Source: Paraspadella gotoi
Taxonomy: Eukaryota > Animalia > Chaetognatha
NCBI GenBank assembly: GCA_051294375.1
Contig: JBJCIZ010000346.1
Coordinates: 1-49,774 of the forward strand
Direction of reading: 5' to 3'
Length of the DNA: 49,774 nucleotides
The notes under the pieces are model-generated. The model had not been told where the DNA came from, ran no database searches, and saw only the letters and a list, made by a program, of their open reading frames with translations. Positions 10,091 through 46,487 of the stretch are shown one piece after another. Within the stretch, counting starts at the first letter, position 1. Each line of letters starts with the position of its first letter. The position numbers and the translations under genes are program-made.

Positions 10091-10097
10091 ATAATTA

Positions 10098-21655: not shown

Positions 21656-21736
21656 TACAGAGAAAGACATATTTTTATTAGAATAACAGAAAAAGTTCAA
21701 AAGGAAGCATTAACAAGACGAGATTTTTTAAAATTA

Positions 21737-23590: not shown

Positions 23591-26500
23591 TTAATAAAAA
23601 ATCATAAAAAGTTTTTCAATAAAAGAAAAAAAATAATGGAAAAAAAAATGACAGAAAAAAAAATGACCAAAATTCAAGGGTAAAGTTAAATCGCTAAAGC
23701 GATTTACAATTCATGTGATTCACTATTTGATTATGCTTTTTGACACTTTTTATCGAGCCCCTTGCTTCAGCTCCTAAGCACGGACTCAAGAGACCCAATA
23801 GCTTCGTCTCTTTTTGTTCTTCATGTCGCTTTTAATGCGTCACTTTGCGTTTTGTCGTCGTGCTTCTCGATCGTCGCATTGCTTCCGTATGATCATGTTT
23901 TTGGTCGTCGCGATACTGAACTAGAGTTCATCCAGCAGACTTCAAAGAGATCATCATACGGCAAAGGGGCTTTGAATGATACCAATTAAAAGCGATTTTT
24001 ACATGTCTTTATTTATTATGTTTTTTGTTATCTACCTTGAACCTGGTGGTTGATTCAACTTTCCTCATTGCACGTTCTGGTTTTATTTCTCCAACGCTTT
24101 TGCCAATTTTTTTTTTTTTTCAAAAATTAAACAACTTTTTTTGACGAAAAAGTAGGATTAAGAGGTATGTGATTTTAGCGGCAAATTTTCTTTGCTGTTT
24201 CTCTCATCAATTGCGATCGAGCGTATCGCTTCATTATTCTATTCTCGTTAGTTGCAGAGATAAATAAGAACTTTCTCAAAATAAAGGGGAAAAGTGGCTG
24301 TTTACGCCGTGAAAAAGTTTTTTGAAACTCAAAGTAAAATTTGGAAAATTGAAAAAAATTCACGAGAAAAAAGAATAAAGAAAGATAAAAATAGCGCGAA
24401 ATTGTTTCATTAGTATTTAGGGATTGCGCGAGGTTGACCGAGTGATGTTATTTCCTCGAAAAGAAATTATTTTTAATTATTATTTTGAGCGGCTGTTCAC
24501 AAGATTTGGCATATGAGAGTAATGGCTACATTTGATCTTTTGTCTTTTTCTATGAAGAATTGTAGAATGTTAAAAAAGGGTATGCGCTTCAGACTTAGAT
24601 GTTCTAGGTGAGGAATTATATGGAACAAAATGGAAATGACCGTCACGTCTCGCTTTGGCGGCCTGAGAATTTTCAAAGAAATTTCACAATTGGTAACCTC
24701 TAGATACTTTCGTTTGATTCGAAGATAGGATCTAGAGGTGCTGTGCGGGTTTTCGACGTTTAATAGTAAGAGAAAATAGCTCTAAACTTAATGAAGTATA
24801 GGCCCACAGAAAGTTGATGCCTCCTCCCCGTTAAGAAGTTTATAAACTAATGCTTGGAGTTTAGAAAAGATATACCTTAAGCACAAAGAAACAAAAGGAG
24901 AAAAAATTTGCTACTCAAGAGATTTATACAGAAATATTATCCAAAAAGCTCCTCATCTGGCTAATGCTTGGGCAAAACGTGCAGTAAGAAAAAAATGGAA
25001 TGGTAGAACGAGAGAGACTGATGACGAGGATGACGAAACGGATTTGAATCCGACTTTGAATCCTTTATAAATTTTTTAAAATATACTGCAGAAATGCCGA
25101 AATGATGGCAGCATCTACGCCGGGAATCTAGCTCTCAGAAGACCGACAGAAGCTTCAAACTCGGATCCCGTAGCCAGTGTCACGTCCAAACCCATCGAAA
25201 ATCTTGTTCCGTTACTTTGGCGGCGGTGTGGCAGCAAGAAACCAGCAAAAAATGTGTCGGTCTCAGAGACTCCACGACTCAACAAATAAAACCCTGCCTC
25301 GAGATTTCCGCATCCAAAGCGATCCATGACACATGCCCCAAGTAAGCTTGTCACATCATCATGTTCATGTGTGAAGACATCATATACATTGAAACCTGTC
25401 GAAAATATCTCACATGGAAATGGAAAAAGGTGTGGGATTATATATAAGAAACAAAATTTATGCCATTGCTGCTTGAGAAAAGGAATAACAAGAGATTGCA
25501 AAAGCTTGTTGGGATGTAGACAATGCGCAGGGCGGTCATCACGTCTCTTTCATGCAGAGACTCGGTGCCAGTCGTCTTCTCTTGACTCGCAGCAGCGTAC
25601 GCGCTACCGGAACTTTCCGTCAATTTTCCTGTAGTTGTAATAAATGAAAGCAGGAAGGTAGTGACGTATGCTGCTTACTTGATAGTGGTGCTACCCGCTC
25701 TGCTATATCAAGCAATATTGTAAATAATTAAAGTTAAATCCCTACACTCTTTATACCAACTTAACTACTTATGACTCTGTATCTCATACTTGGCGAGATT
25801 TTGTTGATATTGAAATTAGAATTTAAAATGACATATTCGTAAAAATGATAAAGTTATTGTTGGGAATATTTTAACTACGGAAAAATGATAGCAACAAAGA
25901 ATAAAGATATTGAGGATTATGATTATATGAAAGATGTTAATTTGTTGAACTTCCTAATGAAGAAATTAAATTATTTTAGATGCACAGCTTGGCCTCCGCT
26001 GGGTCGGTGGATCGACTCGTGTTGGACCCAACGGATTCCCTACTGCACTACTCACTTCGTTTGGTTGGACTCTTATTGGACCAAGTGAAAACGGATGTCA
26101 ACAAGATCATAAATTGTCTTGACATCGCGCATCGGAAATTGAAGATTTAATATTCAAATTTCCGAGGTTAACAAAAATGGATTTTTTAATGAAAGAATCA
26201 GAACATTATTCAAGTGAGATTTCCCATCCTTCAGTAGTACTTGATCAAATTCGCAATTGAACAGTTAGAAAACGGAATAAAATTTAATATTTCTACGAGG
26301 ACATTATTCTGCCGCCAACGCCTATGGAAATAGGGAGAGCAGCAGCCGCCAAGGAATTTCAAAAAATCCGTCCTGCTTACGATCGCGAACGCCAAACGCA
26401 GAGCCATAAAGACTGCTGAAAAAACTCGCAAAAGATCCAATTTTGAAGAAAGGAGTATTTGAGAGCTATGCTTGAATCTATGGAGGTTGGTTTTTCAGCA

Positions 26501-28019
26501 AAATGTGAAATGAAAATTTATATGGCGAGACCCGAATTTTATACTCCCTTGCACATTGTCACACGTTCCTGAAACTCAGCGAAAATTCCGCATTTGTCAA
26601 GACGCGGCCTCTAAGTAAGAGGTACTTTTCTTAATGAGCACCTGATTGCTGGACCTGAATATTGACCCATTATTAGGAGTTTTAATGAGGTTTCGTAGAA
26701 AATGGTGACACTATCGTCGGACATCAAAGGGCTTTTTCCACCAGGTGGAAATTGACCCTGCTGACAGAGGGGCCTTTAGATTTTTCTGGTATACTGATGA
26801 AAACCAGACTGATCTTGAAGCTCATCAATCGAATGTGCATATATTTGGGGGTTCAGGCAGCCCAGGTGTCGCCATTGGGTGATAAAATATCACGCGAAAA
26901 AAATTCAAAATGAAATATCTCAAGAAGCTTTTCTCTCCATTTTTTTAGGCCTCTATATGGACGATTTGCTCAATTCTTTGGACACGCCTGAAGAGGCCAG
27001 AAAACTCCGAATTGAACTCACAGACGCCCTGAAGGCGGCGGATTCGATCTCTGCAAATGGAAATCTTCAGATCCCCGAGTTTTGGGAGATGAAGTTTATT
27101 AAAGACGAGGCCTCCTCCAATCACGACGTCGTCAGATGAACTCGTCGACGATCTTGAAAAGATGGCGGAAACACCTTGTCAGAGAATCCTACAGATGAGC
27201 ATCAAGTAAGATTTTTGGGTGTGGATTCAATACAGAGAAGACATTTTTTTATTAGAATAACAGAAAAAGTTCAAAAGGAAGCATTAACAAGACGAGATTT
27301 TTTAAAATTAGTGGCAGTGTTTATGATCCACTTGGATTCGTTGTCTCCCTATATTCTTAAAGGGAGAGCTTTTTTCAAAAGGCCACTAATGATAACTTGA
27401 CCTGGGATGATAAAGTTTCTGACGACTTTTTAAAAAATTTGGACAAAATGGAGAAAGGAAATGATTCACTTGAAAAGATTCACCTTTCCTCGCTGGACCT
27501 CTATCTCGGGTCTAGAGAAGTTGCGAAAACGCAGCTTATCATTTTTTCCGATGCCTCTCTGTTAGGTTACGGAATTGTTGCTTATTTAAAAAAGATGAAT
27601 GCAAATGAAGATGCATGTCACATTTCTCTTTTTTTATTCAAAATCCATGTTGTGCCATTGCAAAAGCAACGAGTATTAAATTCAGGTCAAAGAAGATCAT
27701 CTTGAAAGCATGCCTCGTTTAGAATTATATGCCAGCCAGACTGGCAGCACTGGGATAACAATAGTAAGAGAATCTGGAGAAGAATTCTCAAGCATTGTCT
27801 ATGTTAACAGATTCGATCACTGTTTTAAACTGGATTAATGACTTCACCAAAAGATTTAAGACTTTTGAAAGCTTCCGACTGAAACTATACGAATTTATCT
27901 CCTATTCAGGAATGGGCCACGTCAAGGAACGAAAATCCCGCGATTTTGCTTCAAGGGGTCTTGACGCTAAAGCAAAGAATAGGTGCAATATCATCAGGTC
28001 GAAGCATGGCTTGGGCGTC

Positions 28020-28465
28020 TGAAGCTTCTGTATTTTCTAGAGCTTTGTTTAAAAGCTTGTTTAAAACTTAGAAAGCTTTCAGTAATATCTAGAGCTTGTT
28101 TAAATACCGAATAAACTCTGTGGAGAGCTTGTTTAAAGATTTCCGGAACTTGAAAAGAAAAGATAAAGATAAAGATCCAAGCAAAGCTTAAAGTTTCTAT
28201 CTTCCAGTCTCTAGTCTCAAGTCTAATCATCCTCATCTTCGTCTCAATTTTCCAAGACAAAGATGCTTCCCAAAGTTCCCGCCCCATGCCTTTTCTCGTG
28301 GGGGGCCATGGGTAAAAGAAGACATGGGTAAAAGAAAGACAAAGATATCTTCCAAGTCTCTAGTCTCAAGTCTCATCATCCTCATCTTCGTTTCTAAGTT
28401 TTCCAAGACAAAGATAGTTTTCCAGTCCTGCCATGCCTTTTCTCGCGGGGGCCATGGGTAAGAAG
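28020..28465. repeat. Short repeats AGAGCTTGTTTAAA (about five) followed by a ~115-bp direct duplication (28199-28315 / 28347-28462)
   Basis: agcttgtttaaa-like motif at ~28041, 28054, 28092 and 28125; atcttcc(a)agtctctagtctcaagtct...ccatgccttttctcg.gggggccatgggtaa occurs twice. Confidence 0.85.
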
Positions 28466-31096
28466 TCGTCCTCCAAACCTCGACTCCGGGACATCACCCA
28501 TCTTCTGGTTACGCTCGTACCTCGTCTGGGACGCTGTGGCCTTGCTCAGATGCGGCGCATTGGAAGGAAGGGAAGGGTCGCTCAGGCATCCAGTGGGACA
28601 AGCCTTCGCAGCTTTCACGCTTCTGCGTTTGGAATAAACCCAGGCACATTTTCCAATGTCTTCGCTGGTACTGTCAGAACTGTTTCGGTCCCCGGATTCT
28701 GCTCCAGAAGGAATTTCTTCTTCATGAGTCAAGAAATCTCGGAGGCGGTCTTCGTCTCTTTCGCGGCTCAAGGTGCCTCGGATCCTCACCTCTCAGCTTC
28801 AGAGAATTTCTCTTCTTCCTTCTCTCCCTTGGCCTCTCCCCGGATCTCCTCATGCCTTCCCTCCTTCCTCCAGGTTATTCCCGCCTTACACGTCTGTATT
28901 CCTTCCGCCCCCTCGTAACCAAACCTGCAAGCGTCCTCTGGCCAGCCCCTAGGGCGGCCTTTTGATCCAGCATCCCCGAATCCTCTTTCTGGATGAGGGT
29001 GGAGAATTTCCTCTTTTGCCCACCTCCCCACCCAGAAATCCCACCAACCGGGGCCTCTTGTTCTCCTGGCCTGTCACCTCCCACCGCCCCCTCCTCTTCC
29101 CTCCTCCCCCTCCTCTTCCCTCTACCCCTCCTACCTTTCTTCCACTTTCGCTTTTCCGCTCTTTTCCTCAAACTTCTACATCTTCTTTGAGTGCCTGGCT
29201 CAGCCAGGACTCCAGTCCAACACTTTCGACTTCGTCACTCAGGGCCTTCAGTCGCGTGAGCCGTCACTCTTCCTTGGAGAAATCTTGCAGTAACTGATTC
29301 CACCTTTTCGCCATGTCCAAAGCGTTGGGAATGCTTGGTCCAAATTTTTTTGCTCGCTATTGACCAGTCCTAGAAGACCGTTCACACAAAGAAGGCATTC
29401 AATGGCTCTTTGCCCTGCCTAAGCAACCTTATCGACTCTCCCTGCCGAGAGGTGGAAGACGCATGGAAATCAAGAACGTCAAACCTCGTCAAAGACCGTT
29501 TTCAAATGGAGAGCAGATGAGCCAATATTCTTAAGGGTATCCCGCGGAAGAAAGCCTCCTCACTTCCTCACCCCTTCGCAGGAATCAGCACATCTTCGGG
29601 CTGCGCGAGATTTGGTCAATATGCTAAACTCAAAGTTGCTAGGCCTCATCATTTTTGGCACAGCACCTCCCTCAACAAGCGCTCGGACAATAAGGAAGCT
29701 CATCCGAAGTTCCCTTCGCCCATCATTCCAATAGAGGATGACCCCCTTTCGTCATAAGTGAAGACTAATGATTTGCAGCCCTCGTTCTTTCCCTGAAGGC
29801 ACCGTCGCTGGAACATCAGGCCCCCCCCCTTCCCCCGGGGCGGCGGGCTTTTTCACAAAAAAAATATTTTAAGGAGAGCAGTCTTCTGTTGGAAGTCCTC
29901 TCAGGGCAGCCAAGACAACCTCAAGCTAACCCATCTCTTAAATGTCATCGCATTCCGGAAACTCCTACCGATGTTTCACCTTCTTCTGCGGGGCATTTGC
30001 ACGCATCAACAGAAATCTCCTGAATCCTGTCCGTCTAGTCGCCGTAGTGTGAGGTTCTCAGACGTTCTTTGTGGCCAGAGTGGTTTGGCCTTTTCAGTTG
30101 GGCCTCAGGCGGCAACTTTCCTGGAGCTATCAGCTTGGAGTGAGGACCAAGGAGGGCCGAAGCGCCTGATTCACGCAAGTCAAAGCCAATACTCGAAGAC
30201 AGTTCCTACCCATCCAATTCTAAAATGGGTGCTACAGGTGGATTTCACATGCTTTCAAATTGCATCGACCGTTCCACCATGCTACTTGAAGTAGCAAACG
30301 GCTTCCCAGCTAAGCCCCTTTGTCAATTGGTGTTATGGGAGTGCCCTCTGGTTCTTCGCTTTGGTGACGAACATTATCTCAGTCGTGGCTGGAGCAAAAG
30401 GTGATCCCGGACCCCTTCTCTCTCCCATAGCTCTTCATGTCTTGGTCGAAGATGGCTTGAGGTTCAGCTCTTCTCCTAAACAACTGGTATTTGGATGATG
30501 GCCTTTTTTTCTGGTGGCCCACTAATCGTACCCCGAGCTTCAAGTTGCTCCAGCAAGATGCCAAGCTGGTGCCCACAAATAGTCATTAAGGTTGAGTCAA
30601 TGACCTTTTGGAGGCCCCGACATCGCGCTTCTCTTCCTCCTTCGGACTGCCTCTCACTGAGATCATTGGACGAAGGGGTCATCCATTCTTGGCCGCGATC
30701 CCGTTGGTTGCGGCTCTTTCTGTCCAGCTTACGCCTCAAAGGAGCGGGTCTAAAACTCTCGGGCTTCTTTGGTCAACCTTGAATCCTTGGGTGACGCCCA
30801 AGTTGGCTTATGCCCTGCTTTCGCGCTGCTTTCGGAACCAATAGTTTCTTACAACCCTAAGAACTGTGCTCCTCACCCTTAGTCCAACTAGCGCATTCTT
30901 CTTCGATGAATCTCATGCTCCTCTCTCGCTTCCCATCCTTGGATGCTCGTTCTCACACTCTCAGATCTCAATGGGACCTTTCTTCTTAACCGCGTCTCCT
31001 GGGCGGCTTGGGAGATACGCAGCGCCCATGCCACAGTGCTCCGGCCTTTGTCTCCTCCTCTGCAGACCAAGTCACTCGTAGATCGACTGTTTGCCC
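28465..31096 (-). mobile_element. Unrelated GC-richer insert with a degenerate gag-like ORF
   Basis: Minus strand LLRQGKEPLNAFFV (29385-29426) resembles the capsid major homology region, followed by an R/G/E-rich linker and degenerate knuckle-like RESCEGLSHWMPER / CAASEQGHSVPD (~28525-28625). Heavily frameshifted. Confidence 0.4.
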
Positions 31097-31573
31097 TCAT
31101 CTCTATTCCAAATGCAACAAAGAGAAACTCAGAACTAAAAGTTCAAAAATGATTTCTCCAAGTCATTTATTGATACTGATATTGCATTATTCGAGGGCCG
31201 GAGGGAAGACTCAGCAATGCAAGAGATAAGAAATTATGAAGGTACCTAACATCACTCCCTTTAATTCATTCCTAAAAGTGACGGAAGTGGTAAATTCACT
31301 TATTAGGCATTATCAGAGCAACTGAAAACATGCAGGAGGCATATCCGACCTTTCCATTCTTTAAACCAATCTTTGCATATTAGTGGAAGATCAAGTGTCG
31401 ACAACATCCGATAAGAAAGCGTGAAAGGCAAAAGGCTCACAAGAAACGACAACCCGCAAAGATGGGATCTGCTTCTTGAATTTCGGGTTCAAGTCACCAT
31501 CCCATTTCGTACGACCGGAATCCGGATTGCTTTTGGTCCATAAGGTGNNNNNNNNNNNNNNNNNNNNNNNNNG

Positions 31574-32437
31574 GTGAGAAATGCTGGAAGAGGATTTAAT
31601 AATAAAAACGTCCTACTTCTGACCTGCATGGGCACAAGAGCTGTAGTTTTTGAAGTTTTAAAAGATATGTCAAGCATGTCATTAATCTCAGCAATCATAA
31701 GATTTAAATCTCGCTTCCCAGGTCTTGAACGACTTATCTCCGATAACGGAACCAATTTCCGTGGTCTCGATAACGAACTGAAGAGACAATTGAAGACGAT
31801 TCGGGAGGACGAAAAATTCTCAGAGTTTATCGCTTCAAACGATATAAGGTGGGATTTTGGGCCTCCACATACCCCTCACTGGGGGGGAGTGTGGGAGAGA
31901 TTAGTAAAAAGTACAAAAAAACACATTACGACATCCTTACCTGAAGAGCCAGACCTTGACACATTTGTTACTATTTTATGTGAAATTTCGGCAATTTTAA
32001 ATAGACGCCCAATTACTCAAGCACCAGCAAATCCAAATGAAATAATAGCTTTAAGTCCAGAAAATTTTTTATATCCTTATTTACATGCTTCAACAGCATT
32101 AACTCTACTTCCTTATACTCCTACAGTTGGTGACTCTCTCCGCGCATCATGGAAAACTGTCCGCGATACTGCAGACAAATTTTGGATTCGCTGGAAAAAG
32201 GAGTATTTAACAACCCTTAGAAGCCGAACGAAATGGACTTCATCCTCAGATCACTTTCAAATCGGGAGCGTGGTTCTCATAGAAGAAGAAAATGTTCCCC
32301 GCGATATTTGGAGAATAGGACGAATTGAAGAACTTCTTGGAGAAGAGAACCACAAGAGAGAAGCGAACGTCAAAATGGCGAACGGAAAAATAATTCGACG
32401 CCATGTGACTTCTCTCATTCATCTTGAGGTCGATTGA
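31574..32437 (+). CDS. pol: BEL/Pao integrase core and C-terminal domain, intact frame to the stop codon
   Basis: LLTCMGTRAVVFEV, ISDNGTNFRG, PHWGGVWERLVKSTK, LNRRP, FWIRWKKEYL..L..RTKW, GSVVLI, W.IGRI, RHVTSLIHLE. Confidence 0.95.
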   Translation: MRNAGRGFNNKNVLLLTCMGTRAVVFEVLKDMSSMSLISAIIRFKSRFPGLERLISDNGTNFRGLDNELKRQLKTIREDEKFSEFIASNDIRWDFGPPHTPHWGGVWERLVKSTKKHITTSLPEEPDLDTFVTILCEISAILNRRPITQAPANPNEIIALSPENFLYPYLHASTALTLLPYTPTVGDSLRASWKTVRDTADKFWIRWKKEYLTTLRSRTKWTSSSDHFQIGSVVLIEEENVPRDIWRIGRIEELLGEENHKREANVKMANGKIIRRHVTSLIHLEVD

Positions 32438-32767
32438 GTTACTCGTCATAATCAAGAGACATTTAGAATTTGAATTTGTGGGAGAAAAGTTTCTACCTTA
32501 TATTTCCTATTACTGTCAGTTACTTTTCTTATTTCAAAAACCATAAATTATTTAAAATACATCATTTATTAATTATATTAATAACACAATTGGGAACAAA
32601 CATATTGAATCATTGATAAATTTTACACATGTTCATTTGACATTTATCTTGGTTGATAAAAACTATTGTTCAAAAAACGATTCAATAGTAAACATTGAAA
32701 CGAGCACTCATCTATTTCAATTAAATTATTTTATTGAATTTCTTCTTATTAACCTCACCAGATGAAC

Positions 32768-34623
32768 CTATTTCAAGAGCAATTGATAGTATGTCAACAG
32801 AGCTTCAATTGTACTTACCTCCTGCCTTTGGATATATATCTTTTGTTTGGTCCCGTCATTTCCTTACTTGGTTCTGCATATATGTTACCATTTGCCACCT
32901 ATTAAACATAAATGTGATTATAAAAAAATCACAACTCTGTAGTGCATCTTTGACTAGAATGCCCAAATGCTCTCTTCTCATCTCATTAAGATAGTCCACG
33001 CTGATTACTTGATGTTAAATTATTGTCAAACGAGTCACTGATGAAGAGAACAATTAGAAAATAATAAAAATTAGACCTATTTGCATTTAATCATCTGGCC
33101 AAGCATTCCGCGATTTCGTTTCTGTAACCTGAACAAAAGAGAAATTAAAATATTCAAACGATTCTACCCTTTTACCTTTAAAATTGTTTGATCTCATCCA
33201 TGATGAGTGAGTTCATTGACTTAGTGATCATTGAACGGGAAGTCACGAGCCCACCATCGTCTCCATCAAATCGCGAAGTCCTCGTCGCGCCGTCGAGTTC
33301 CGCGTCGATCCGAAAGCTCAAAGATGACGATATCATTGAGGTGATCGAAGTGAAGACGTGGGCGCCGCCTGAGTCAAGCTCGTCGAATCCGAGGACGATC
33401 TGTCCATAGTCCTAACGAAAATCCAATTCCGTGACGACGAAATCCAATTTCGTGACGACAATCCAAATCCGCGACAATAATGATAAGCAATCCCATGGTG
33501 ATCCGAAGTCTTACCTGGCAACGATCCTCACAAATGCTCTGAATGAAACGACGATTCCTTTGATAGCCGCTGAAGATCCCGAAAGAAACTAAATAAAAGA
33601 TTAAAAAATTAGTAACATTGAAATCGAAAACTTACCTGTTTGTAACGGAACCGGATTGTGGTATTATTTTTTTTTTTTAAAGTAAAAAACTATTAACATT
33701 GCAATACATAACCAATGTATACCTATGTATTTTTGTAACTTACCTTCTCTCATCACACATCAAAGCAAAATCTTTCAGACTATGCACGTGAAAATATTTT
33801 TTTTGGCTACCCACTTACCTCGAAGATTTTCTCTTGAGGAGATAAGAAGCGGGAAGATGCACTGGTCCTGCAGATCCAAAATTATTAAACAGCTTCTTAA
33901 ATGAAACCTCAAAGCGTGGACATTTAATTATGATTCCTCAAAATTGAAAAAGAAAAACTGGAAAATTTTTATTATTGCTATTGTTATTGCATAATTTGTC
34001 ATTCATTGTCCATCTTGTTCAGTTTGTTATGGAAATATCTGAATAACAATATTGGAGGCAGTGGGTTCGTGGGCACTCACAACTCACTTATATTCAAGGA
34101 CTCGTATATAAATGAAATCAACTACCGAAAACCCAACTCCGCGTAAGAAACTCTCGAACAGATCGATTGCAGCCATCGAGAGATTTGATGGGAAAAAAAT
34201 TAACATTGAATCCGGAAAAACGGATCCAGTTCAAGGACGAAAACCTTATCTCGCACCTTGGGCAAAATATAAAAACTATGCAAAATGCCTCTGCAAGATT
34301 ATGAAAGAATTAATCATCTTTAAAATATGTATTGCTTTATTCATGTCTCTGTTTGGCCATTGTTTGGTTGATGTCTATTATTTATTGAATCAACTCACCA
34401 CTTACCTTTTCCAGGAGTCATTCCAAAAATAAAGTGCGATTGCACTCAATTCAAACTTTAATCTGCGATCTTTCACGAACTCAAAATTCATCCAGTTTAT
34501 CACGGCTTAAACTCAAATTAAATTCAACAAACGGCCAATTCGCGGTTCCATCGACTTCTTAGGTGAGATCCAAATCAAACTTACCTGAAAATAAAAGGAT
34601 TATTATGAAACATTTATACTTAC
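32768..34623 (-). other. Putative antisense multi-intron transcription unit inside the element (copy D; homologues ~2870-4660 on + and ~43405-44860 on -)
   Basis: Minus-strand GT-AG intron candidates 34585-34623, 34291-34405, 34039-34087, 33780-33818, 33690-33743, 33589-33635 and 32768-32818; donors GTAAGT/GTGAGT; TACTAAC branch motif in the copy-E homologue (43984-43990). Confidence 0.65.
33188..33566 (+). CDS. Small acidic/Ser-rich hypothetical ORF (~125 aa across indels) with IQFRDDE repeats
   Basis: ORF 33188-33409 joins the copy-E ORF 43734-43946; in-frame 21-nt repeat. The opposite strand is also largely open, so the strand is uncertain. Confidence 0.35.
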
Positions 34624-34627
34624 CAGG

Positions 34628-35012
34628 ATGATGAACAACCACGACCTCATGTGGAATAACGTTGAGCAATTGAATCTCTCTCTTGACATTGAGGGCGATG
34701 AGTTTGCTTCCATATTTTCAGCAAACTCTCTCCATGAAGTCCTAGACTGTGCCGACCCAAACGATGTGGCCGGGTTCAACCGCCAGGACCCGCTGAACCT
34801 GAACATTCCCATTCCTCCCCTTATGGATCAGCCGGAAGTAAGTGAAAATCCAATGAAATTTATTACTTTGGTTACACACAATTCACTTACCCAACATATT
34901 TAATTCAGCCAACTTTCCACGAGCGACAACCTTCCGCCAAAAACACGCTTGAAGACTCCACTTCCGATGAAGGAACCCTACCCTACGAAGTTCCACCTAC
35001 CCCCAAAACTCC
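34628..35012 (+). CDS. Accessory ORF3, exon 1 (34628-34837) and start of exon 2 (from 34909) in copy D
   Basis: Removing the phase-0 intron GTAAGT...TTCAG (34838-34908) joins MMNNHDLMW...LMDQPE in frame to PTFHERQPSAKNTLEDSTSDEGTLPYEVPPTPKTP. Confidence 0.7.
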
Positions 35013-35592
35013 TCCATCTTTATGCTTCTTTTTTCGAAAAGAAGACGGACGGACTTCTTCGCTTTTCGCACTTTTTTCCGTTTCGGCTGCGACGTTGATA
35101 CGGGAAGAGGATACCAAACGGAACTGCTCAGAAGATCGACAACGAGGATTTTGAAGAGGGTCTTTAACAATACATTGACGTTTCGTCCTTTGTCGTCGTC
35201 GTCCGTTGGCATTGCCGTGAAGGAATATGGGAGGAGGGGGACAGTTTTCATCTTGATAATCACTCGGGTTGACGATGAGGCCCGAAATGATTGAAGACGA
35301 AAAACGAACGAAATCGATGCCGCCGTCTCTTTGCAACGCGGGGCCAGTTTTTACGACACGTCTATGATCATTCGTCGCCACCCTCACGAAGAGGGTTACG
35401 TCGGGACGAAATTTCCATTAAGTCCAGAAGTTCCGAAACGATGAACCGGAATTTTTCCTCGTTGGAGTAAGCGAGGAGACTTAAATGGTTGTTACAGTTT
35501 GATGTGTCGATTTTCCAATCAACGCATCGGGAATTGGAGGAAGCTCCGCGTACTCGGAAGGTCGGAAAGGAATCGTGCTTTTAGGTTGGGCG
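35013..35592 (-). repeat. Inverted ~580-bp piece of ORF3
   Basis: Reverse complement of ~45316-45872; abuts a 100-N gap. Confidence 0.9.
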
Positions 35593-38462
35593 NNNNNNNN
35601 NNNNNNNNNNNNNNNNNNNNNNNNNNNNNNNNNNNNNNNNNNNNNNNNNNNNNNNNNNNNNNNNNNNNNNNNNNNNNNNNNNNNNNNNNNNNCTTTTTCT
35701 CCTGTTTTGTCCCCAATTGTTCCTGCAGTTATTAATGAAATACAACCCAACTGTGATATGATTAAAACTTATTCAAAACAAAATAACATAGTTATTGAAA
35801 ACACCTCTCCTGTGGTATATACTAGTCCAGCAGTGGCATTACCAGTTATATCTTCAACCGTAAATCAGTCTCATTTGCCACAATCTGTTCAATCGTCATA
35901 TGTTGGTTTACCTGTATCTTTACCCTCTTTGGAACAGTCAAATCAGTTATTATTAATTTTACAAGCCTTATCTCAAGCTTGTTCGTCATTATTTCCGCCC
36001 ATTCCGAATCCGCTTCCGCCGGTAGTACCGCCGTCCGCGCCGCCGGCACCGTCGGAAAATCCCGTAGCTTCTCCGATCATTTCATCCGCAGCAGCACCTC
36101 CGACGGGCGCCGCAGCAGCCCCGCCGTTTCTGTCGTCGGGTCATCAAATCACGGTCGAATCTACAATCGCCGAAAAACCGTGGATCACAACTTCCCTTAC
36201 CCCGATCCACCTCCCTTCCCCCCTCCATAAAGTAAAAGGATCCATCTGAAAATCAGGTTTTTAAGAAAAAAATTAAAATCTAAAAATAAACCTGTTTTGA
36301 ATAAAATTATCGATGATCCTCCTCACCTTAGCGACGACGACGAATCCATCTGTTCCGACGAACCCTCGTCTGGATCCATCGCGATACCGGCGACTGAGGA
36401 CAATCCATTGATTCAGCTGTGCTTCATTCAATCTCAGCACAATGCCTTTCTCTGATGCGTCAAAAACGCCCAAAGACGAATTTTCTGAAGGACAGGCGAG
36501 TAGATTTTGACGCTCAGTTAGCTTTATTCATATACTTTTATAGCATTCCAGGCATTACTAACGAAATGCTGGTTGCTGAAATGCGTGAGTACTTTTCTGG
36601 TGATGCCTAATTATCATACAACAATATGAATTAGGCCGCGATTATGCCCGCTCTTTAAAAAAGATTAAGAAAGCTTAAAAGTTCAGTTTGGCAGAAAAAG
36701 TTATACTGCACGTCATTTACTTGATAATTTACTAAAGGCCCGAAAATAAGCAGCAGAGAATTCTGCAAGCCTTAAGACTTTTATACTTGAGTTAGAAAAG
36801 ATATACCTTAAAGCCAAAGAAACAAATAGGGAAAAAACTTTGCTACTCAAGAGATTTATACGAAATATTATCCAAAAAAGCTCCTCATCTTGGCTAATGC
36901 TTTGGGCAAAACGTGCAGTAAAGAAAAAAATGGAATGGTTAGAACGAGAGACTGATGACGAGGATGACGAAACTGATTTAGATCCGACTTTTGAATCCTT
37001 TATTAAATTTTTAAAATATACTGCAGAAATCGCCGAAATGGGCACATCTACGCGGGAATCAGCTCCTCAAACGACAGACCTTAAACTCGGATCCCTAGCC
37101 ATGTCAACGCCAAAACCCCATCGAAATCTTTTCCCGTTCACTTTGCGCGGTATGCAAAACCAGCAAAATGTGTCGGTCTCAGAGACTTCCAACGACTCAA
37201 CAAATACAAACCCTGCTCCGAGATTTCCGCATCAAACGCGAATCCAATGACACATGCCCCAAGAAGCTTGTCAACATCATCATGTTTCATGTGTGGAAGC
37301 AATCATTACATTGAAACCTGTCGAAAATATCTCAACATGGAAATGGAAAAAGGTGGGATTATATAAAGAAACAAAATTTTATGCCATTGCTGCTTGAGAA
37401 AAGGCATGTAACAAGAGATTGCAAAAGCTTGTTGGGATGTAGACAATGCGCAGGGCGATCTACGTCTCCTTCATGCAGAGACTCCGGTGCCGTCGTCTTC
37501 CTCTGACTCGCNNNNNNNNNNNNNNNNNNNNNNNNNNNNNNNNNNNNNNNNNNNNNNNNNNNNNNNNNNNNNNNNNNNNNNNNNNNNNNNNNNNNNNNNN
37601 NNNNNNNNNNNNNNNNNNNNNNNNNNNNNNNNNNNNNNNNNNNNNNNNNNNNNNNNNNNNNNNNNNNNNNNNNNNNNNNNNNNNNNNNNNNNNNNNNNNN
37701 NNNNNNNNNNNNNNNNNNNNNNNNNNNNNNNNNNNNNNNNNNNNNNNNNNNNNNNNNNNNNNNNNNNNNNNNNNNNNNNNNNNNNNNNNNNNNNNNNNNN
37801 NNNNNNNNNNNNNNNNNNNNNNNNNNNNNNNNNNNNNNNNNNNNNNNNNNNNNNNNNNNNNNNNNNNNNNNNNNNNNNNNNNNNNNNNNNNNNNNNNNNN
37901 NNNNNNNNNNNNNNNNNNNNNNNNNNNNNNNNNNNNNNNNNNNNNNNNNNNNNNNNNNNNNNNNNNNNNNNNNNNNNNNNNNNNNNNNNNNNNNNNNNNN
38001 NNNNNNNNNNNNNNNNNNNNNNNNNNNNNNNNNNNNNNNNNNNNNNNNNNNNNNNNNNNNNNNNNNNNNNNNNNNNNNNNNNNNNNNNNNNNNNNNNNNN
38101 NNNNNNNNNNNNNNNNNNNNNNNNNNNNNNNNNNNNNNGAAAAAACTTTGCTACTCAAGAGATTTATACAGAAATATTATCCAAAAAAGCTCCTCATCTG
38201 GCTAATGCTTGGGCAAAACGTGCAGTAAAGAAAAAAATGGAATGGTTTAGAACGAAGAGCTGATGACGAGGATGACGAAACGATTTAGATCCGACTTTTG
38301 AATCCTTTATTAAATTTTTAAAATATACTGCAGAAATCGCCGAAATGGGCAGCATCTACGCGGGAATCAGCTCCTCAAACGACAGACCTTCAAACTCGGA
38401 TCCCGTAGCCATGTCAACGCCAAAACCCCATCGAAATCTTTTCCCGTTCACTTTGCCGGCGG

Positions 38463-38825
38463 TTGCAGCAAAACCAGCAAAAATGTGTCGGTCTCAGAGA
38501 CTTCCAACGACTAACAAATACAAACCCTGCTCCGAGATTTCCGCATCCAAACGCGAATCCAATGACACATGCCCCAAGAAAGCTTGTCACATCATCATGT
38601 TTCATGTGTGGAAGCAATCATTACATTGAAACCTGTCGAAAATATCTCAACATGGAAATGGAAAAAAGGTGGGATTATATAAAGAAACAAAATTTATGCC
38701 ATTGCTGCTTGAGAAAAGGACATGTAACAAGAGATTGCAAAAGCTTGTTGGGATGTAGACAATGCGCAGGGCGTCATCACGTCTCTCTTCATGCAGAGAC
38801 TCCGGTGCCGTCGTCTTCCTCTTGA
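38463..38825 (+). CDS. gag: Gag nucleocapsid with three Cys/His knuckles
   Basis: CFMCGSNHYIETC (CX2CX3HX4C), CHCCLRKGHVTRDC (CX2CX4HX4C) and CRQCAGRHHVSLH, the triple-knuckle pattern diagnostic of BEL/Pao. Confidence 0.95.
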   Translation: MQQNQQKCVGLRDFQRLTNTNPAPRFPHPNANPMTHAPRKLVTSSCFMCGSNHYIETCRKYLNMEMEKRWDYIKKQNLCHCCLRKGHVTRDCKSLLGCRQCAGRHHVSLHAETPVPSSSS

Positions 38826-38849
38826 CTCGCAGCAGCGTACGCCGCTACC

Positions 38850-39345
38850 GGGACTTTCCGTCCAATTGTTCCTGTAGTTGTAATAAATGAAAGCAGGAAG
38901 GTAGTGACGTATGCTCTACTTGATAGTGGTGCTACCCGCTCTGCTATATCAACAAATATTTGTAAATAAATTAAAGTTAAATCCCTACACTCTTTATACC
39001 AACTTAACTACTTATGACTCTGTATCTCATACTTGGCGAGATTTTGTTGATATTGAAATTAGAAATTTAAATGACGATTATTCCCGTAAAAATGAATAAA
39101 GTTATTGTTGGAATATTTTAACTACGAAAATGTATAGCCAACAAAGAATAAGATATTGAGGATTATTGATTATATGAAAGATGTTAAATTTGTTGAACTT
39201 CCTAATGAAGAAATTAATATTATTTTAGATGCAAGCTTGGCCTCCGCCTGGGTCGGCGGATCGCGATCGACTCGTGTTGGACCCAACGGATTCCCTACTG
39301 CACTACTCACTTCGTTTGGTTGGACTCTTATTGGACCAAGTGAAA
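38850..39345 (+). CDS. pol: Aspartic protease domain (frameshifted)
   Basis: VTYALLDSGATRS (DSG at 38922-38930), then INIILDA and TALLTSFGWTLIGP. Confidence 0.9.
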
Positions 39346-42300
39346 ACGGATGTCAACAAGATCAGATAAATTGTCTTGACATCGCGCCATCGGAAATTGA
39401 AGATTTAAATATTCAAATTTCCAGGTTAACAAAAATGGATTTTTTAATGAAAGAATCAGAACATTATTCAAGTGAGATTTCCCATCCTTCAGTACTTGAT
39501 CAATATGCAATTGAACAGTTAGAAAACGGAATAAAATTTAATATTTCCACAGGACATTATTCTGCCCCAACGCCTTGGAAAAAGGGGAGAGCAGCAGCCG
39601 CCAAGGAATTTCAAAAAATCCGCTCTGCTACGATCGCGAACGCCAAACGCAGAGCCATAAAGACTGCTGAAAAACTCGCGGAGAGTAGATCGCGACTGGT
39701 TGGTGCAGAGATCAGAGGAGATTTGAGACTATGCTTGAATCTATGGAGGTTGTTTTTCAAGCAAATGTGAAATTGAAAATTTATATTGGCGAGAACCCGA
39801 ATTTTATACTCCTTGCACATGTCACACGTCCTGATAAACAGGAAAATTCGGCATTTGTCAAGACGGCGGCCTCTAAAGTAAGAGAGCTTCTTTCTTAATG
39901 AGCACCTGATTGCTGGGACCTGATAATTTGACCCCATTATTAGGAGTTTTAATGAGGTTTCGTAGAAAAATGGTGACACGTTAGTCGTTCGGACATCAAA
40001 GGCTTTTTCCACCAGGGTGGAAATTGACCCTGCTGACAGAGGGCCTTTAGATTTTTTCTGGTATACTGATGAAACGATGACTGTATCTTGAAGCTCACCA
40101 TTACTCCAATGTGCATATATTTGGGGGTTCAGAGCAGCCCAGGTTCGCTTAATGGTTGATAAAGTACTCACAGACTTGTTAGATTCAGCGAAAAAAATTC
40201 AAAATGAAATATCTCAAGAAGCTTTTCTCTCATTCATTTATTTTAGGCCTCTATATGGACGATTTGCTTCAATTCTTTGGACACGCCTGAAGAGGCTAAA
40301 AAAACTCCGAATTTGAACTCACAGACGCCCTGAAGCGCGGCGGATTCGATCTCTGCAAATGGAAATCTTCAGATCCCCGAGTTTTGGAGATGAAGTTATT
40401 AAAGACGAGGCGCCTCCTCCAATCAACGGTACGTCGTCAGATGAACTCGTCGACGATCTTGAAAAGATGGCGGAAAAACACCTTTTCAGAGAATCCTACA
40501 GATGAGCACTCAAGTAAGATTTTGGGTGTTGGATTCAATACAGAGAAAGACGTATTTTTTATTAGAATAACAGAAAAAGTTCAAAAGGAGCATTAACAAG
40601 ACGAGATTTTTTAAAATTAGTGGCAAGTGTTTATGATCCACTTGGATTCGTGTCTCCCTATATTCTTAAAGGGAGAGCTTATTTTCAAAAGGCCACTAAT
40701 GATAACTTGACCTGGGATGATAAAGTTTCTGACGAACTTTTTAAAAGATTTGACAAATGGAGAAAGGAAATGATTTCACTTGAAAAGATTCACCTTTCCC
40801 TCGCTGGACCTCTATCTCGGGTCTAGAAGTTGCGAAAACGCAGCTTATCATTTTTTCCTGCCGAGCTTCTGCCTCTGCTGTTAGGTTACGGAATTGTTGC
40901 TTATTTAAAAAGTATGAATGCAAATGAAGATAGCATGTCACATTTCTTTTTTTTATTTAAAATCCCATGTTTTGTGCATTGCAAATGCAACGAGTATTTA
41001 TCTCAGGTCAAGAAGATCATCTGAAAGCTTATGCCTCGTTTAGAATTAAATGCCGCCAGACTGGCAGCCCAATCTAGGGATACAATAGTAAGAGAATCTG
41101 GAGAAGAATTCTCAAGCATTGTCATGTTAACAGATTCGATCACTGTTTTAAACTGGATTAATGACTTCACCAAAAGATTTAAGACTTTTGAGCACTTCCG
41201 ACTGAAAACTATACGAAATTTATCTCCTATTCAGGAATGGCGCCACGTTCAAGGAACGGAAAATCCCGCCGATTTTGCTTCAAGGGGTCTTGACGCTAAA
41301 GACAAGAAATGGTCAATATTTCTATCAAGGTCCAGCATGGCTTCGGCGTCCTGAAAGCGAATGGCCAACTTCAAGTCATCCAGTTAATTCCTCCAAAACA
41401 AAACTCCAAAAGAGAAAGAACCGGAGGAGATAAATCTATCTGCAATTCATGACGATTGTAGTTATTCACCGATCGAACTCATTGCAATCAACGCCATCGC
41501 GATTATCCATTCTCCCGCCCTCCGACTCCAAGACTGGCAATCAAGATCACTGAGAAAATCTCAGATTGGCGACAAAAGGTAAGACGCGTCGCCTATTTCA
41601 CAAAATGTGTTCCGCTATTTTTTAAAATATTTAAAAGAAAAGAAGGAGGGAAAAAAGGTTAAAGTTGAAAAATATTATGCTTACTGTTGATGAACTTCAA
41701 AAATGCAAGAACCAAGTTATATAGAGCGATTCAACGATTTCATTTTGATAAAGAATTTTTTTGAGTTAAAACTTGGCATTCTATCTCCAAATGCAAAAAG
41801 AGAACTCAGAACTAAAAGTTCAAAAATGATTTCTCTAAGTCCATTTATTGATACGGATCATTGCATTAGAGCCGGAGGGAGACTCAGCAATGCAAAGATA
41901 TGATATTATGAGGGTTAAATATCCTTTTAATTCTCTAAAAGTGACGAAGTGGTAAATTCCATTATTAGGCATTATATCACGAGCAACTGAAACTGGGCAG
42001 AGCATCTGCGACCTTTCATTCTTTAAACCAATCTTTTGCATTATTAGGTGGAAGATCAAGTGTCGACAACATCGTGAGGAAAATGCGTTAATGCCAAAAG
42101 GCTCACAAGAAACCGACACCACAACACGATGATCGGATCTTTCCTAGAATTTCGGGTTCAAAGTCACCATCCCATTTCGTACGACCGGAATCGATTGCTT
42201 GGTCCATACAGGGTGAGAAATGCTGGAAGAGGATTTAATATAAAAAACGTCCTACTTCTGACCTGCATGGGCACAAGAGCTGTAGTTTTTGAAGTTTTAA

Positions 42301-43076: not shown

Positions 43077-43809
43077 GTTACTCTCATAATCAAGAGACAT
43101 TTAGAATTTGAATTTTTGTGGGAGAAAAGTTTCTACCTTATATTTCCTATTACTGTCAGTATTTTCTTATTTCAAAACCATAAATTATTTAAATACATCA
43201 TTTATTAAATTAATATAATACACAATTTGGGAACAAACATATTGAATCATTGATAAATTTTACACATGTTCATTTGACATTTATCTTGGTTGATAAAAAC
43301 TATTGTTCAAAAAAACGATTCAATAGTAAACATTGAAACGAGCACTCATCTATTTCAATTAAAATTATTTTATTGAATTTCTTCTTATTAACCTCACCAA
43401 GATGAACCTATTTCAAAGAGCAATTGATAGTATGTCAACTAGAGCTTCAATTGTACTTACCTCCTGCCTTTGGAAATATTATCTTTTGTTTGGTCCAGCG
43501 TCATGTTCCGTTACTAATGTTCTGTCATACTGTTCATCCATTTGCGTAGCCTATTTGAAAACATAAAATGTGATTAATAAAAAAAAAATCACAATCCTGT
43601 AGTGCATCTTTGACAGAGTGCCCAAACGGTTTCTTTTTTTTTTTTATGGCCGGCGAAGGTAGACTCGTCGCCGCCGTCGAGTTCCGCGTCGATTCGAAAG
43701 TCAAAGATGACGATATCATTGAGGTGATCCGAAGTGAAGACGTGGGCGCCGCCTGAGTCAAGCTTGTCCGAATCCGAGGACGATCTGTCCATAGTCCTAA
43801 ACAAATCCA

Positions 43810-43860
43810 AAATCCAATTCCGTGACGACGAAATCCAATTTCGTGACGACGAAATCCAAT
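43810..43860 (+). repeat. 21-nt tandem repeat, ~2.5 copies (AAATCCAATTYCGTGACGACG)
   Basis: Seen directly; also at ~33418-33470 and inverted at ~4206-4270. Confidence 0.9.
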
Positions 43861-44938
43861 CCGCGACAAGCAATCCCATGGGATCCGAAGTCTTACTGGC
43901 AACGATCCTCACAAATGCTCTGAATGAAACGACGATCCCTTTTTGATAGCCGCCTGAAGATCCCGAAAGAACACTAAATAAAAGTTAGTAACATTGAAAT
44001 CGAAAACTTACCTGTTTGTAACGGAACCGGAATTGTGGTATTATTTTTTTTTAAAGTAAAAAACTATTAACATTGCAATACATAACCAATGTATACCTAT
44101 GTATTGTTGTAACTTACCTTCTCTCATCACACATCAAAGCAAAATCTTTCAGACTATGCACGTGAAAATATTTTTTTTGGCTACCCACTTACCTCGAAGA
44201 TTCTCTTGAGGAGATAAGAAGCGGAAGATGCCTGGTCCTGCAGATCCAAAATTAATTAAACAGCTTCTTAATGTGAAACCTCAAAGCGTGGACATTTAAT
44301 TATGATTCCTCAAAATTGAAAAAGAAAAACTGGAAAATTTTATTATTGCTATTGTTATTGCATAATTTGTCATTCATTGTCCATCTTGTTCATTTGTTAT
44401 GGAAATTATCTGAATAACAATATGGAGGCAGTGGGTTCGTGGGCACTCAAACTCACTTATATTCAAGGACTCGTATATAAATGAAATCAACTACCGAAAA
44501 CCCAACTCCGCGTAAGAAACTCTCGAAAGATCGATTGCAGCCATCGAGAGATTTGATGGGAAAAAAAGTTAACATTGAATCCGGAAAAACGGAATCCATC
44601 AAGGACGAAACCTTAATCTCGCACCTTGGCAAAATATAAAAACTATGCAAAATGCCTCTGCAAGATTATGAAAGAATTAATCATCTTTAAAATAGTATTG
44701 CTTTATTCATTGTCTCTGTTTGGCCATTGTTTGTTGATGTCTATTATTATTGAATCAACTCACCACTTACCTTTTCCAGGAGTCATTCCAAAATAAAGTG
44801 CATTGCACTCAATTCAAACTTTAATCTGCGATCTTCACGAATTCAAAAAAAATATTCATCGTTTATCACGGCTTAAACTCAAATTAAATTCACAAACGGC
44901 CAATTCGCAGCGTTCCAAAATCAATGAACTTTCTTAGG

Positions 44939-46337
44939 ATGATGAACAACCAGCGACCTCATGTGGAATAACGTTGAGCAATTGAATCTCTCTCTTGACA
45001 TTGAGGCGATGAGTTTGCTTCCATATTTCAGCAAACTCTGCTCCATGAAGTCCTAGACTGTGCCGACCCAAACGATTGTGGCGGTTCAACCGCCAAGACC
45101 CGCTGAACCTGAACATTCCCATTCCTCCCCTTATGGATCAGCCGAAGTAAGTGAAAATCCAATGAAATTTTTACTTTGGTTACCACAAATTCACTTACCC
45201 AACATATTTATCAGCAACTTTCCACGAGCGACAACCTTCCGCAAAACACCGCTTGAAGACTCCACTTCCGATGAAGGAACCCTACCCTACGAAGTTCCAC
45301 CTACCCCCAAAACTCCGCCCACTAAGCACGATTCCTTCCGACCTTCCGAGTACGCGGGAGCTTCCTCAATCCCGATGCGTGATGGAAAAATCGACACTCA
45401 AACTGTAACAACCATTTAAGTCTCCTGCTTACTCCAACGAGAAAATTCCCGTTCATCGTCGAACTTCTGACGAATGGAAAATTTCGTCCCGACGTCCCTC
45501 TTCGTGGCAGGGTGGGACGAATGATCAAGACGTGTCGTAAAAACTGGCGGCCGCGTTGCAAAGAACGCGGCATCGATTTCGCTCGTTTTCGTCTTCAATC
45601 ATTTCGGCCTCATCGTCAACGCCGAGTGATTATCAAGATGAAAACTGTCCCCTCCTCCCAATTATCACGGCAATGCCAACCGGACGACGACGACAAAGAC
45701 GAAACGTAATGTCATTGTCAAAGGGACCTCTCTGTCAAAATCCTCGTCATCGATCTCTGAAGCAGTTCCGTTGGTATCCTCTTCCCGTATCAACGTCGCA
45801 GCCGAAACGGAAAAGTCGAAAAGCGAAGAAGTCCGTCGTCTTCTTTTCGAAAAAGAAGCATTAAAGATGGAGCGAGACAAGTACAAGATGATAGCCGCGA
45901 GGTATGAGAAAGACTTGGCGCTTGAAAAACGTCTTCGTGAAAAAGATCGTGACCGTTTTGAAGAAAAGATGCAGAAAATGCGCCAGGATTCAGATAAACG
46001 CATCGACCGCCTCAAAGAAACTCACCTGTATGAGATCCGGAGTTTGTGTGAAGCACTTTGCGCTGCTTCTCTCCAATCAGTTGATCCATCTTCATTGGCG
46101 TCGAAAAGTAAGAAAGATGCTGTCCGCGAATCTACAAAAGTGCCCTCTCAAAGTGCATCGTTCAAAGTAAATAAAAACCCGGCTGATAATGCTCGTCCCC
46201 ACTTACCTCCCTTCAACCCCCCTCCCCACCTTCCAACACCTGGCAAAATCCCCCCTGCCAATCCCCTCCCCCCGAAAAGTCCAAAAAAAATATTAATCCG
46301 CGATTATTGTACTTATTTACAAAATATTTATCGCTGA
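44939..46337 (+). CDS. Accessory ORF3 (~440 aa after splicing and indel correction): acidic N-terminus, central compact domain, coiled coil, Pro-rich tail; function unknown
   Basis: Fragments 45060-45419, 45556-45864 and the clean 188-aa ORF 45771-46337 (EEVRRLLFEKEALKMERDKYKMIAARYEKDLALEKRLREK...PPFNPPPHLPTPGKIPP); intron ~45146-45214; present in four copies. Confidence 0.7.
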
Positions 46338-46487
46338 ACAATCTTTATCGTCAGTTTATTGATTTGTATAATAAACAATCAAATTTTTTATCTACTCTGA
46401 CGAAAATATTTATACTTACCTTTTACAGTCTGTAAATTAATTATACTCACCCTTTACATTCCATAAATTAATAAAAATCTTCTTCTT

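Follow-up and report, generated by a model that had tools for sequence, protein, structure and literature searches.

What does a dense row of splice-donor-like sequences do behind the integrase of a retroelement, and on which strand does it act? The question is raised by a stretch of DNA from the chaetognath Paraspadella gotoi (GenBank assembly GCA_051294375.1, contig JBJCIZ010000346.1, positions 1 to 49,774 of the forward strand), which we analysed whole as a window of 49,774 nucleotides (nt). The window is eukaryotic and AT-rich, has eight N gaps and is filled by copies of a single BEL/Pao-type retroelement. In one of them, copy D, the heptamer ACTTACC, which reads GGTAAGT on the minus strand, forms a cluster directly after the integrase stop at 32437, and a first-pass annotation had read this cluster as the mark of a multi-exon antisense gene or RNA. 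The motif signal proves to be genuine and strong, and it has the character of a 5′ splice site. Based on the sequence, we tentatively read the ACTTACC copies (at a probability of roughly 40%) as donors recognised by U1 on an antisense, multi-intron and probably non-coding transcript.

A motif of 5′ splice-site type behind pol

On the plus strand, ACTTACC lies at 32813, 33630, 33738, 33813, 34400, 34579, 34618 and 34885, and the variant ACTCAC at 34075, 34082 and 34393, all as first annotated. The accompanying claim that such a heptamer should be rare held up under shuffling: the eight copies in 32768-34891 compare with a mean of 0.09 in 2000 dinucleotide shuffles, none of which reached eight (maximum three). 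Six of the eight sites extend to the 8-mer ACTTACCT, for which 0.02 would be expected in this interval, and GGTAAGT does not occur there on the plus strand. Under an order-2 Markov model trained on 32438-35015 itself, ACTTACC is the most over-represented 7-mer of that region (8 versus 0.22). Across the window, 18 of 20 matches lie on the plus strand, and 100 dinucleotide shuffles gave 3.21 ± 2.21 matches with a maximum of 9, none reaching 20. An excess of about 90-fold is strong enough to serve as a search handle for further copies and relatives. Chance, low complexity or an internal repeat is a barely credible source of these numbers. Local repeats are present at two sites (tandem 7-mers, and a 31-nt repeat at 46403-46472), but the shuffles never come close, the flanks of the sites share nothing past 9-11 bases, and no repeat family lies over them.

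Self-comparison with blastn (word sizes 11 and 9) delimits copy A (1566-2434 plus an inverted block, 2460-10099), the fragment B (20535-23117), C+D (24850-28023 and 31098-35012, with a GC-rich 3-kb insert between) and E (35693-45319). Six ACTTACC sites recur in copy E, as had been noted, at 43455, 44006, 44112, 44187, 44765 and 45193; together with ACTCAC at 44451 and 44758 they occupy 43455..45199 and read as donors on the minus strand. We divided the region behind pol into Q (32438-34479), P (34479-35012), X (35012-35580) and Y (45872-46364, in E). Counted as GTRAGT in antisense versus sense orientation to the element, the signal stands at 7:0 in the Q of E, 4:0 in Y and its tail, 0:0 in X, and 3:1 in the 7.4 kb of 5′ region and gag-pol, where the three antisense occurrences lack an AG/ context (the slash marks a splice junction). 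The integrase end of pol in D (31574..32437, plus strand; Pfam DUF5641 E=3.2e-22, rve E=4.5e-4) is motif-free, in agreement with the earlier remark on the neighbouring integrase, and the whole pol/integrase part of this copy, 31098-32437, has no GTRAGT on either strand. Four further sites, again donors on the minus strand, carry the cluster past the region first described: ACTCACC 46020 and ACTTACC 46201 lie inside a sense frame in Y, and ACTTACC 46414 and ACTCACC 46445 lie after the AATAAA of Y, in the 31-nt tandem repeat. The cluster stays within Q-P and the Y tail, the accessory part at the 3′ side of the element, and does not extend into gag-pol.

Read on the minus strand, the sites are GAG/, CAG/ or AAG/GTAAGT. 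Among the 12 GTRAGW of that strand in 32438-35592, G stands at -1 in ten and AG/ in seven. The variable base of ACTNAC is T eight times and C three times but never A or G, and on the minus strand this is MAG/GTRAGT with only a purine at +3. Because the variable base is restricted to T and C and the motif extends to ACTTACCT, it is the complement of the 5′ splice-site consensus AG/GTRAGT and not a branch point. ACTAAC and ACTGAC are the forms that pair best with U2, and neither is present beside eight ACTTAC and three ACTCAC. The alternative that the motif is a branch point or 3′ splice-site sequence (yUnAy, as CUUAC or CUCAC) of ordinary sense introns would account for a copy 17 nt before the 3′ end of a frame-preserving sense intron (34838-34908) and for copies directly preceding TTTTCCAG/G (34414), CAG/G (34626) and TTTTACAG/T (46429). 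It is nonetheless highly improbable: the sense strand offers just four GTRAGW donors to match, the branch A would lie 4-11 nt from the AG at four sites, and the link to acceptors is not significant with composition-matched anchors. Binding sites for Zelda (CAGGTAG) or ZEB (TACCTG) and a microRNA seed were dropped as candidates, the invariant core being GGTAAGT. This leaves two readings. Either a minus-strand RNA carries the motif as a donor or U1 site, or the sense RNA carries it as a U1-like sequence pairing with a donor provided in trans.

Candidate introns on the minus strand

In the antisense reading, transcription of the minus strand would begin on the far side of the accessory genes and run back through them, the RNA would lose short introns (the candidates in copy D measure 39, 39, 47, 47, 49, 51, 54, 103 and 115 nt), and its end would fall at the minus-strand AATAAA of 32730..32735. 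This signal comes 33 nt after the last candidate acceptor (32768) and about 295 nt before the pol stop would be reached. A second minus-strand AATAAA is at 32565. With its end at 32730, the antisense unit would be convergent with pol and would never overlap gag-pol. Introns lying antisense stay in the sense genomic RNA and so would survive retrotransposition. Such a transcript would not encode a protein but would act as a regulatory antisense RNA directed at the accessory genes.

The minus strand of D allows nine GT..AG intervals of 39-115 nt to be drawn. Following the antisense direction, ACTTACC 34885..34891 (TGG/GTAAGTG) has no good minus-strand acceptor nearby; it is the copy that sits inside the sense intron, 17 nt from its 3′ end, and it is complementary to the 5′ end of that same intron. 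ACTTACC 34618 and 34579 follow, with a 39-nt candidate, GTAAGTA..TTTTCAG, at 34585..34623; on the plus strand these two motifs sit 10 and 49 nt before the ATG at 34628. The tandem ACTCACC-ACTTACC of 34393-34406 (AAG/GTAAGTG/GTGAGT on the minus strand), which is immediately followed by TTTTCCAG/G on the plus strand, opens a 115-nt candidate (34291..34405, ..CTTGCAG). The ACTCAC pair at 34075/34082 supplies GTGAGT twice, 7 nt apart, for a 49-nt candidate (34039..34087, ..TTATTCAG), and on the plus strand lies 25-37 nt before the ATG of the sense open reading frame (ORF) G2. ACTTACC 33813 (GAG/GTAAGTG) heads a 39-nt interval with a weak acceptor (33780..33818, ..GTGCATAG), and ACTTACC 33738 (AAG/GTAAGTT), which on the plus strand precedes TCTTTCAG/ACTATG by 34 nt, heads one of 54 nt (33690..33743, ..GTTAATAG). 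The donor at ACTTACC 33630 (CAG/GTAAGTT) is intact in D, E and A and begins a 47-nt candidate ending in TTTATTTAG (33589..33635); on the plus strand the same stretch reads AATAAA (33592) with the motif 38 nt later. The remaining candidates are one of 103 nt, CAG/GTAAGAC..TTCGTTAG (33412..33514), which brings two minus-strand frames together in phase and has a 21-nt tandem repeat inside it; one of 47 nt, GTAAAAG..TTTGTTCAG (33129..33175), inside a 300-bp segment specific to D; and one of 51 nt, from 32818 to 32768, ending in ..GAAATAG (donor GAG/GTAAGTA, ACTTACC 32813..32819).

Two of these intervals touch features of their own. The D-specific segment, 32968-33280, measures about 300 bp in D, and in its place E and A have about 45 bp; the segment includes the ATG of the sense ORF G1 and has a clean 47-nt GTAAAAG..TTGTTCAG interval on the minus strand. 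The 21-nt repeat unit occurs within Q at 33415-33475 and 43810-43867, and encodes IQFRDDE repeats in the sense frame of E.

Several of the intervals have strong ends, namely GTAAGT..TTTTCAG, GTAAGT..TTTATTTAG and GTAAAAG..TTTGTTCAG, and seven of eight acceptor sites are kept in all three copies (D, E and A). Removing 33514 to 33412 and 33635 to 33589 joins frames into the longest spliced ORF, of 111 amino acids (aa). Two sites lie within the convincing sense frame Y, where an intercistronic role on the sense strand makes no sense, and this too speaks for the antisense reading.

Other results weigh against it. A best-acceptor score of at least 6 occurs behind two of ten donors, with a null of 0.21 (Mann-Whitney P=0.30), and pyrimidine-rich YAG acceptors number nine on the minus strand and 11 on the plus strand. 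The interval from 34623 to 34585 abuts the next donor and leaves a zero-length exon. Donors also come as tandem 7-mers (34405/34398 and 34087/34080) and in the 31-nt repeat, and tandem copies look more like binding sites than ordinary donors. Eight perfect GGTAAGT among about 12 donors are probably more uniform than the donors of ordinary animal genes. Splicing all nine intervals gives at best the 111-aa frame, over two of the nine junctions and with no start Met. Minus-strand ORFs have codon scores of -0.006 to -0.089, the same as antisense controls, in a log-odds model trained on the element's own sense ORFs; the model was right in 12/12 leave-one-out trials with stops counted and in 8/12 without stops, and is therefore weak. 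The minus-strand ORFs of D and E differ by frameshifts, no antisense ORF is kept, and the excess of open frames varies from sense in D (P<0.01) through neither strand in E to antisense in A (P=0.03). The same region holds sense ORFs with frame-specific, element-like codon usage, terminal AATAAA signals and a frame-preserving intron. An antisense RNA, if it exists, is probably non-coding.

Two comparisons with other sequences add to the case against. Copy A retains three of 11 donor sites, as neutral decay predicts. In 80 distant BEL/Pao loci from metagenomes (integrases 31-41% identical), the 3 kb behind the integrase hold at most one ACTTACC per locus, and a total of three in 83,916 nt indicates that the cluster is not a general BEL/Pao trait; these loci are too distant, and mostly too short after the integrase, for a fair test of conservation in diverged relatives. 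Contigs of run X1, the one sequencing run found, on D and on E 42100-46480 are short, with an even depth of 1-12 over pol, Q, X and Y and no joints, and an independent contig from it covers 33407-33918 unspliced with three motifs kept. The run looks like DNA and probably holds DNA, so it says nothing on expression.

Together these results divide the first-pass claim of a maintained spliced antisense transcript. A 5′ splice-site-type signal antisense to the element, with AG/ or G/ context, a purine at +3 and confinement behind pol, stands. The idea that the transcript is spliced and maintained fares worse, as acceptors are not enriched and the best spliced frame, the 111-aa one, lacks a start Met. 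An acceptor had also been placed 39-115 nt from most donors; a pyrimidine-rich YAG does lie behind seven of the 12 GTRAGW donors, but no more often than behind random anchors.

Donors that are hugely enriched beside acceptors that are not could instead be U1 small nuclear ribonucleoprotein (snRNP) sites on an antisense RNA, bound without productive splicing to block polyadenylation or export of read-through, or to suppress premature termination. Unpaired 5′ splice-site motifs inhibit polyadenylation or export in papillomavirus, human immunodeficiency virus (HIV) and cellular RNAs, and the tandem and repeated copies, the sites even within sense frame Y and the lack of an antisense ORF would all fit such a role. 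We regard it as clearly unlikely. General suppression of antisense RNA predicts sites elsewhere too, but they are limited to the accessory region and absent from the 7.4 kb of 5′ region and gag-pol and from X; several donor-acceptor pairs look like good short introns; and we know of no precedent in a retrotransposon.

Sense ORFs and a possible U1-like sequence between them

The accessory region also carries ORFs on the sense strand, where the motif falls mostly in the spacers. G1 (33200..33409, plus strand) is 69 aa long in D; in E it reads on to a stop beside the AATAAA that lies at 33592 in D, and its frame there, 43728-43943, outscores the other five frames in codon usage (+0.044). G2 (34112..34432, plus strand) runs for 106 aa from an ATG to a stop overlapping the AATAAA at 34428, and its N-terminal part again scores best of six (+0.113). 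Gene P (34628..35011, plus strand) opens with an exon of 70 codons from ATGATG (34628-34837; +0.059, best of six), followed by a 71-nt intron, GTAAGT..TTCAG, at 34838-34908 and by a second exon that stays in phase from 34909 for another 81 codons. In E and in a further unit, F, P is followed by X-Y, with the Y frame of E at 45642-46334 (231 aa, coiled-coil-like) and an AATAAA at 46372. This frame has no protein relative at E≤0.001, and leads from Atlas are only generic coiled-coil.

These ORFs are part of the basis of an alternative in which the motif acts on the sense strand. The 5′ end of U1, which we take to be AUACUUACCUG, is matched by the motif at up to 10 of 11 bases, and ACUUACCU, U1-like and carried on a polycistronic sense RNA, could base-pair with the donor of a spliced-leader (SL) RNA, so that the accessory ORFs would be cut out and trans-spliced as in an operon. 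Nematodes use such an arrangement: the Ur element, as Lasda and colleagues are said to have found in 2010, pairs with the SL2 donor and is preceded by a short stem-loop just 5′ of it. In our element, sense ORFs run from ATG to a stop at or near AATAAA in three cases (G1 33592, G2 34428, Y 46372), and the open frames of the G2 N-terminal part, P exon 1 and G1 in E score best of six. The motif stands 28-42 nt after three of five sense AATAAA signals (33592 to 33630, 34590 to 34618 and 46372 to 46414), a spacing with a chance of about 0.002 by hand estimate. It also stands 34-47 nt before YAG acceptors that are 2-4 nt from an ATG (33738 to 33778/ACTATG; 34579 to 34626/GATG). Tandem copies and a uniform sequence fit pairing with one fixed RNA, the motif is unpaired in 10 of 11 folds, and the copy inside the lone sense intron, 17 nt from where that intron ends, is complementary to the intron's 5′ end. 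The form TACCTT is found at three of ten sites (33738, 34400 and 46414), the others having TACCTG, TACCTC, TACCAG or TACCCA.

Against this, Ur elements are a nematode feature, and an Rfam scan of the window turned up neither an SL RNA nor any other family. The stem-loop expected just before the motif is missing: one of 11 folds beats shuffles (z=-2.84), whereas the other ten have z of -1.34 to +0.94. An acceptor score of at least 6 at 26-60 nt after the motif occurs in two of ten cases with a null of 0.12, and the link to acceptors has P=0.19-0.35 with composition-matched anchors. The sites at 46020 and 46201 are inside coding frame Y, those at 32813 and 33813 match no cistron start, and the CTA or CTG directly before two AATAAA signals, which are canonical acceptors on the minus strand, would have to be left to chance. 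The U1-like reading is a serious rival and as coherent as the antisense one, but we consider it somewhat unlikely, and the fuller proposal, that BEL/Pao accessory genes form an operon in which sense "super-Ur" elements complementary to the spliced-leader donor replace retroviral cis-splicing, rather unlikely.

Sequence alone does not break the tie over the strand of action. The antisense and sense readings are mirror images of each other: GGTAAGT..TTTATT(T)YAG on one strand reads AATAAA, about 35 nt and ACTTACC on the other. The CTA or CTG that completes an acceptor before two AATAAA signals and the two sites in Y point to the antisense strand. The exact AATAAA signals, the sense ORFs and the uniform tandem motif point to the sense strand.

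The layout recalls nematode intercistronic regions, whose Ur motif, TAYYTT with variants that include TACCTT, sits some 50 bp ahead of SL2 trans-splice sites (PMC7668243; bioRxiv 10.1101/642082). Our element would resemble this in having, on the sense RNA, a pyrimidine motif like the 5′ end of U1 between a poly(A) signal and the next acceptor, with TACCTT at three of the ten sites. It differs in that the motif is a longer, near-invariant 7-9-mer without a preceding stem-loop, that some copies are within ORFs or right at an acceptor, and that the spacing is not significant. If the sense reading were true, the U1-like elements would mean that a retroelement makes use of host machinery for resolving operons.

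The carrier element, its copies and known systems

Pfam places the Pao peptidase A17 (Peptidase_A17, E=7e-17 and 4e-13), RVT_1 (5e-8) and an integrase with DUF5641 (rve + DUF5641, 3e-22) on plus-strand frames, so that the domains by which a BEL/Pao element is recognised (Peptidase A17, reverse transcriptase, and integrase with DUF5641) are all present in the carrier. Beyond these pol domains, 14- and 42-frame sets, including the tested Q and P frames on both strands, gave no Pfam match, and Rfam and tRNA scans of the whole window gave none. In the blastn self-comparison no pair of long terminal repeats (LTRs) flanks any copy, and N gaps at 2435, 35593 and 37512 may conceal LTRs.

The missing LTR pair bears on a further alternative, in which a host gene, whether ordinary, decayed or present as a captured fragment, occupies the minus strand and Q-P has no function in the retrotransposon. 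A dead element would then have been duplicated together with its neighbours at the DNA level, the antisense relation being incidental. The crowding of copies into a single 50-kb window, where they are nested, inverted and arranged in tandem, would fit this, as would the tandem duplication of P-X-Y without the element and the fact that the contig ends within about 1 kb after the integrase in most of the 80 related loci. On the other side, the pol-Q junction is identical in all three copies (A, D and E), and Q shares the A-rich, G-poor base bias of the element's sense strand. Near-uniform perfect donors would also be unexpected in a host gene, which should moreover have an ORF; none was found, and the tested Q and P frames match no Pfam family on either strand. 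We judge this origin quite improbable.

Differences between the copies look neutral even in the integrase, where the true frame has seven synonymous and 18 non-synonymous changes with no purifying signal. The synonymous/non-synonymous comparison therefore has no power here, and what A, D and E have in common does not count as evidence: all six sites shared by D and E are kept, and A retains three of 11 donors, both of which fit the overall identities. The long form of the interval at 34585..34623 is common to D, F and A and shortened in E, and D and F are 0.82-0.88 identical around 34579-34635 compared with 0.4-0.88 elsewhere, which is not decisive. An intron-precise loss in E at 34563-34626 was considered and rejected, the alignment being ambiguous with no clean removal of a sense or an antisense intron. 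Insertions or deletions of 1-2 nt separate copies A, D and E at very many places, and because some of those in E are reproduced by an independent short-read contig, at least part of them are real copy divergence and not assembly noise. In a search of 1.84 billion representatives, the closest integrases are at most 48% identical, so the searched library contains no close relative of the element. Upstream of the integrase, the 80 metagenome loci (283,446 nt) have 24 ACTTACC versus nine GGTAAGT on the sense strand, and the smaller number of GGTAAGT in their gag-pol fits an avoidance of strong donors on the genomic-RNA strand.

Antisense accessory genes are known from plant LTR retrotransposons. 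Antisense ORFs between pol and the 3′ LTR (aORF-3R) have been described in maize Grande (gene23), rice RIRE2, Silene Retand and PvRetro13, and the present cluster is like them in lying right after pol and opposite to gag-pol, in most copies of its family and without database homologues (PMC7264820). Theirs are ORFs in plant Ty3/gypsy elements, whereas here a metazoan BEL/Pao element has a row of donors and no antisense ORF. In position, the cluster follows the integrase directly in A, D and E, and no LTR pair was seen. HBZ of human T-cell leukemia virus 1 (HTLV-1) has a spliced form with one intron and a clear ORF. The antisense RNA predicted here would resemble it in being confined to the accessory region 3′ of pol, but it would have about nine short candidate introns and no ORF, and no LTR or promoter was located. 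Isolated U1-dependent 5′ splice-site motifs, as in the papillomavirus late 3′ untranslated region, the HIV-1 major donor and telescripting, are likewise perfect, sometimes tandem and unpaired; they lie on gene-carrying transcripts, unlike the motifs here, which would lie on a hypothetical antisense RNA within about 3 kb. An antisense promoter is present in the 3′ LTR of HTLV, and the word "intron" is absent from the same review of antisense ORFs (PMC7264820). A literature search in a limited library found no multi-intron antisense unit or Ur-like element in BEL/Pao, and no Ur-like element in any retrotransposon. If the antisense reading were true, a multi-intron antisense RNA in a metazoan BEL/Pao element would extend the range of plant LTR antisense accessory genes and retroviral HBZ-type transcripts, and it would illustrate in nature how introns can outlast retrotransposition through their orientation.

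Several rearrangements were seen around the copies. Segment X (570 bp) is inverted in D (35012-35580) relative to E (45324-45872) and F (47095-47623), with breakpoints exactly on the P/X and X/Y junctions, and the sense frame P-X-Y is therefore truncated in D; this may be either a real inversion or a misassembly beside the 100-N gap at 35593. After E, the P-X-Y unit is tandemly duplicated without the retroelement (44938-46364 versus 46633-48118, 85% identity). Reversing the block 2460-10099 makes copy A collinear with E (35693-45319), the switch falling at the 25-N gap at 2435; the scaffold may be misoriented here, or an inversion may have its breakpoint at the element position that corresponds to 36605/36606.

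Upstream of gag, 240-2279 holds long plus-strand frames of 247, 125, 127 and 215 aa without a Pfam match; the run recurs at 14232-15625 and 35693-36249 and possibly represents an additional gene at the element's 5′ end. The GC-rich (about 50%) 3-kb insert between C and D, 28024-31097, contains overlapping low-complexity frames on both strands, three of which were tested with no Pfam match. A 19/36-nt satellite of about 480 bp follows fragment B at 23107-23588, and an 18-nt repeat lies at the end of the window, at 49662-49757.

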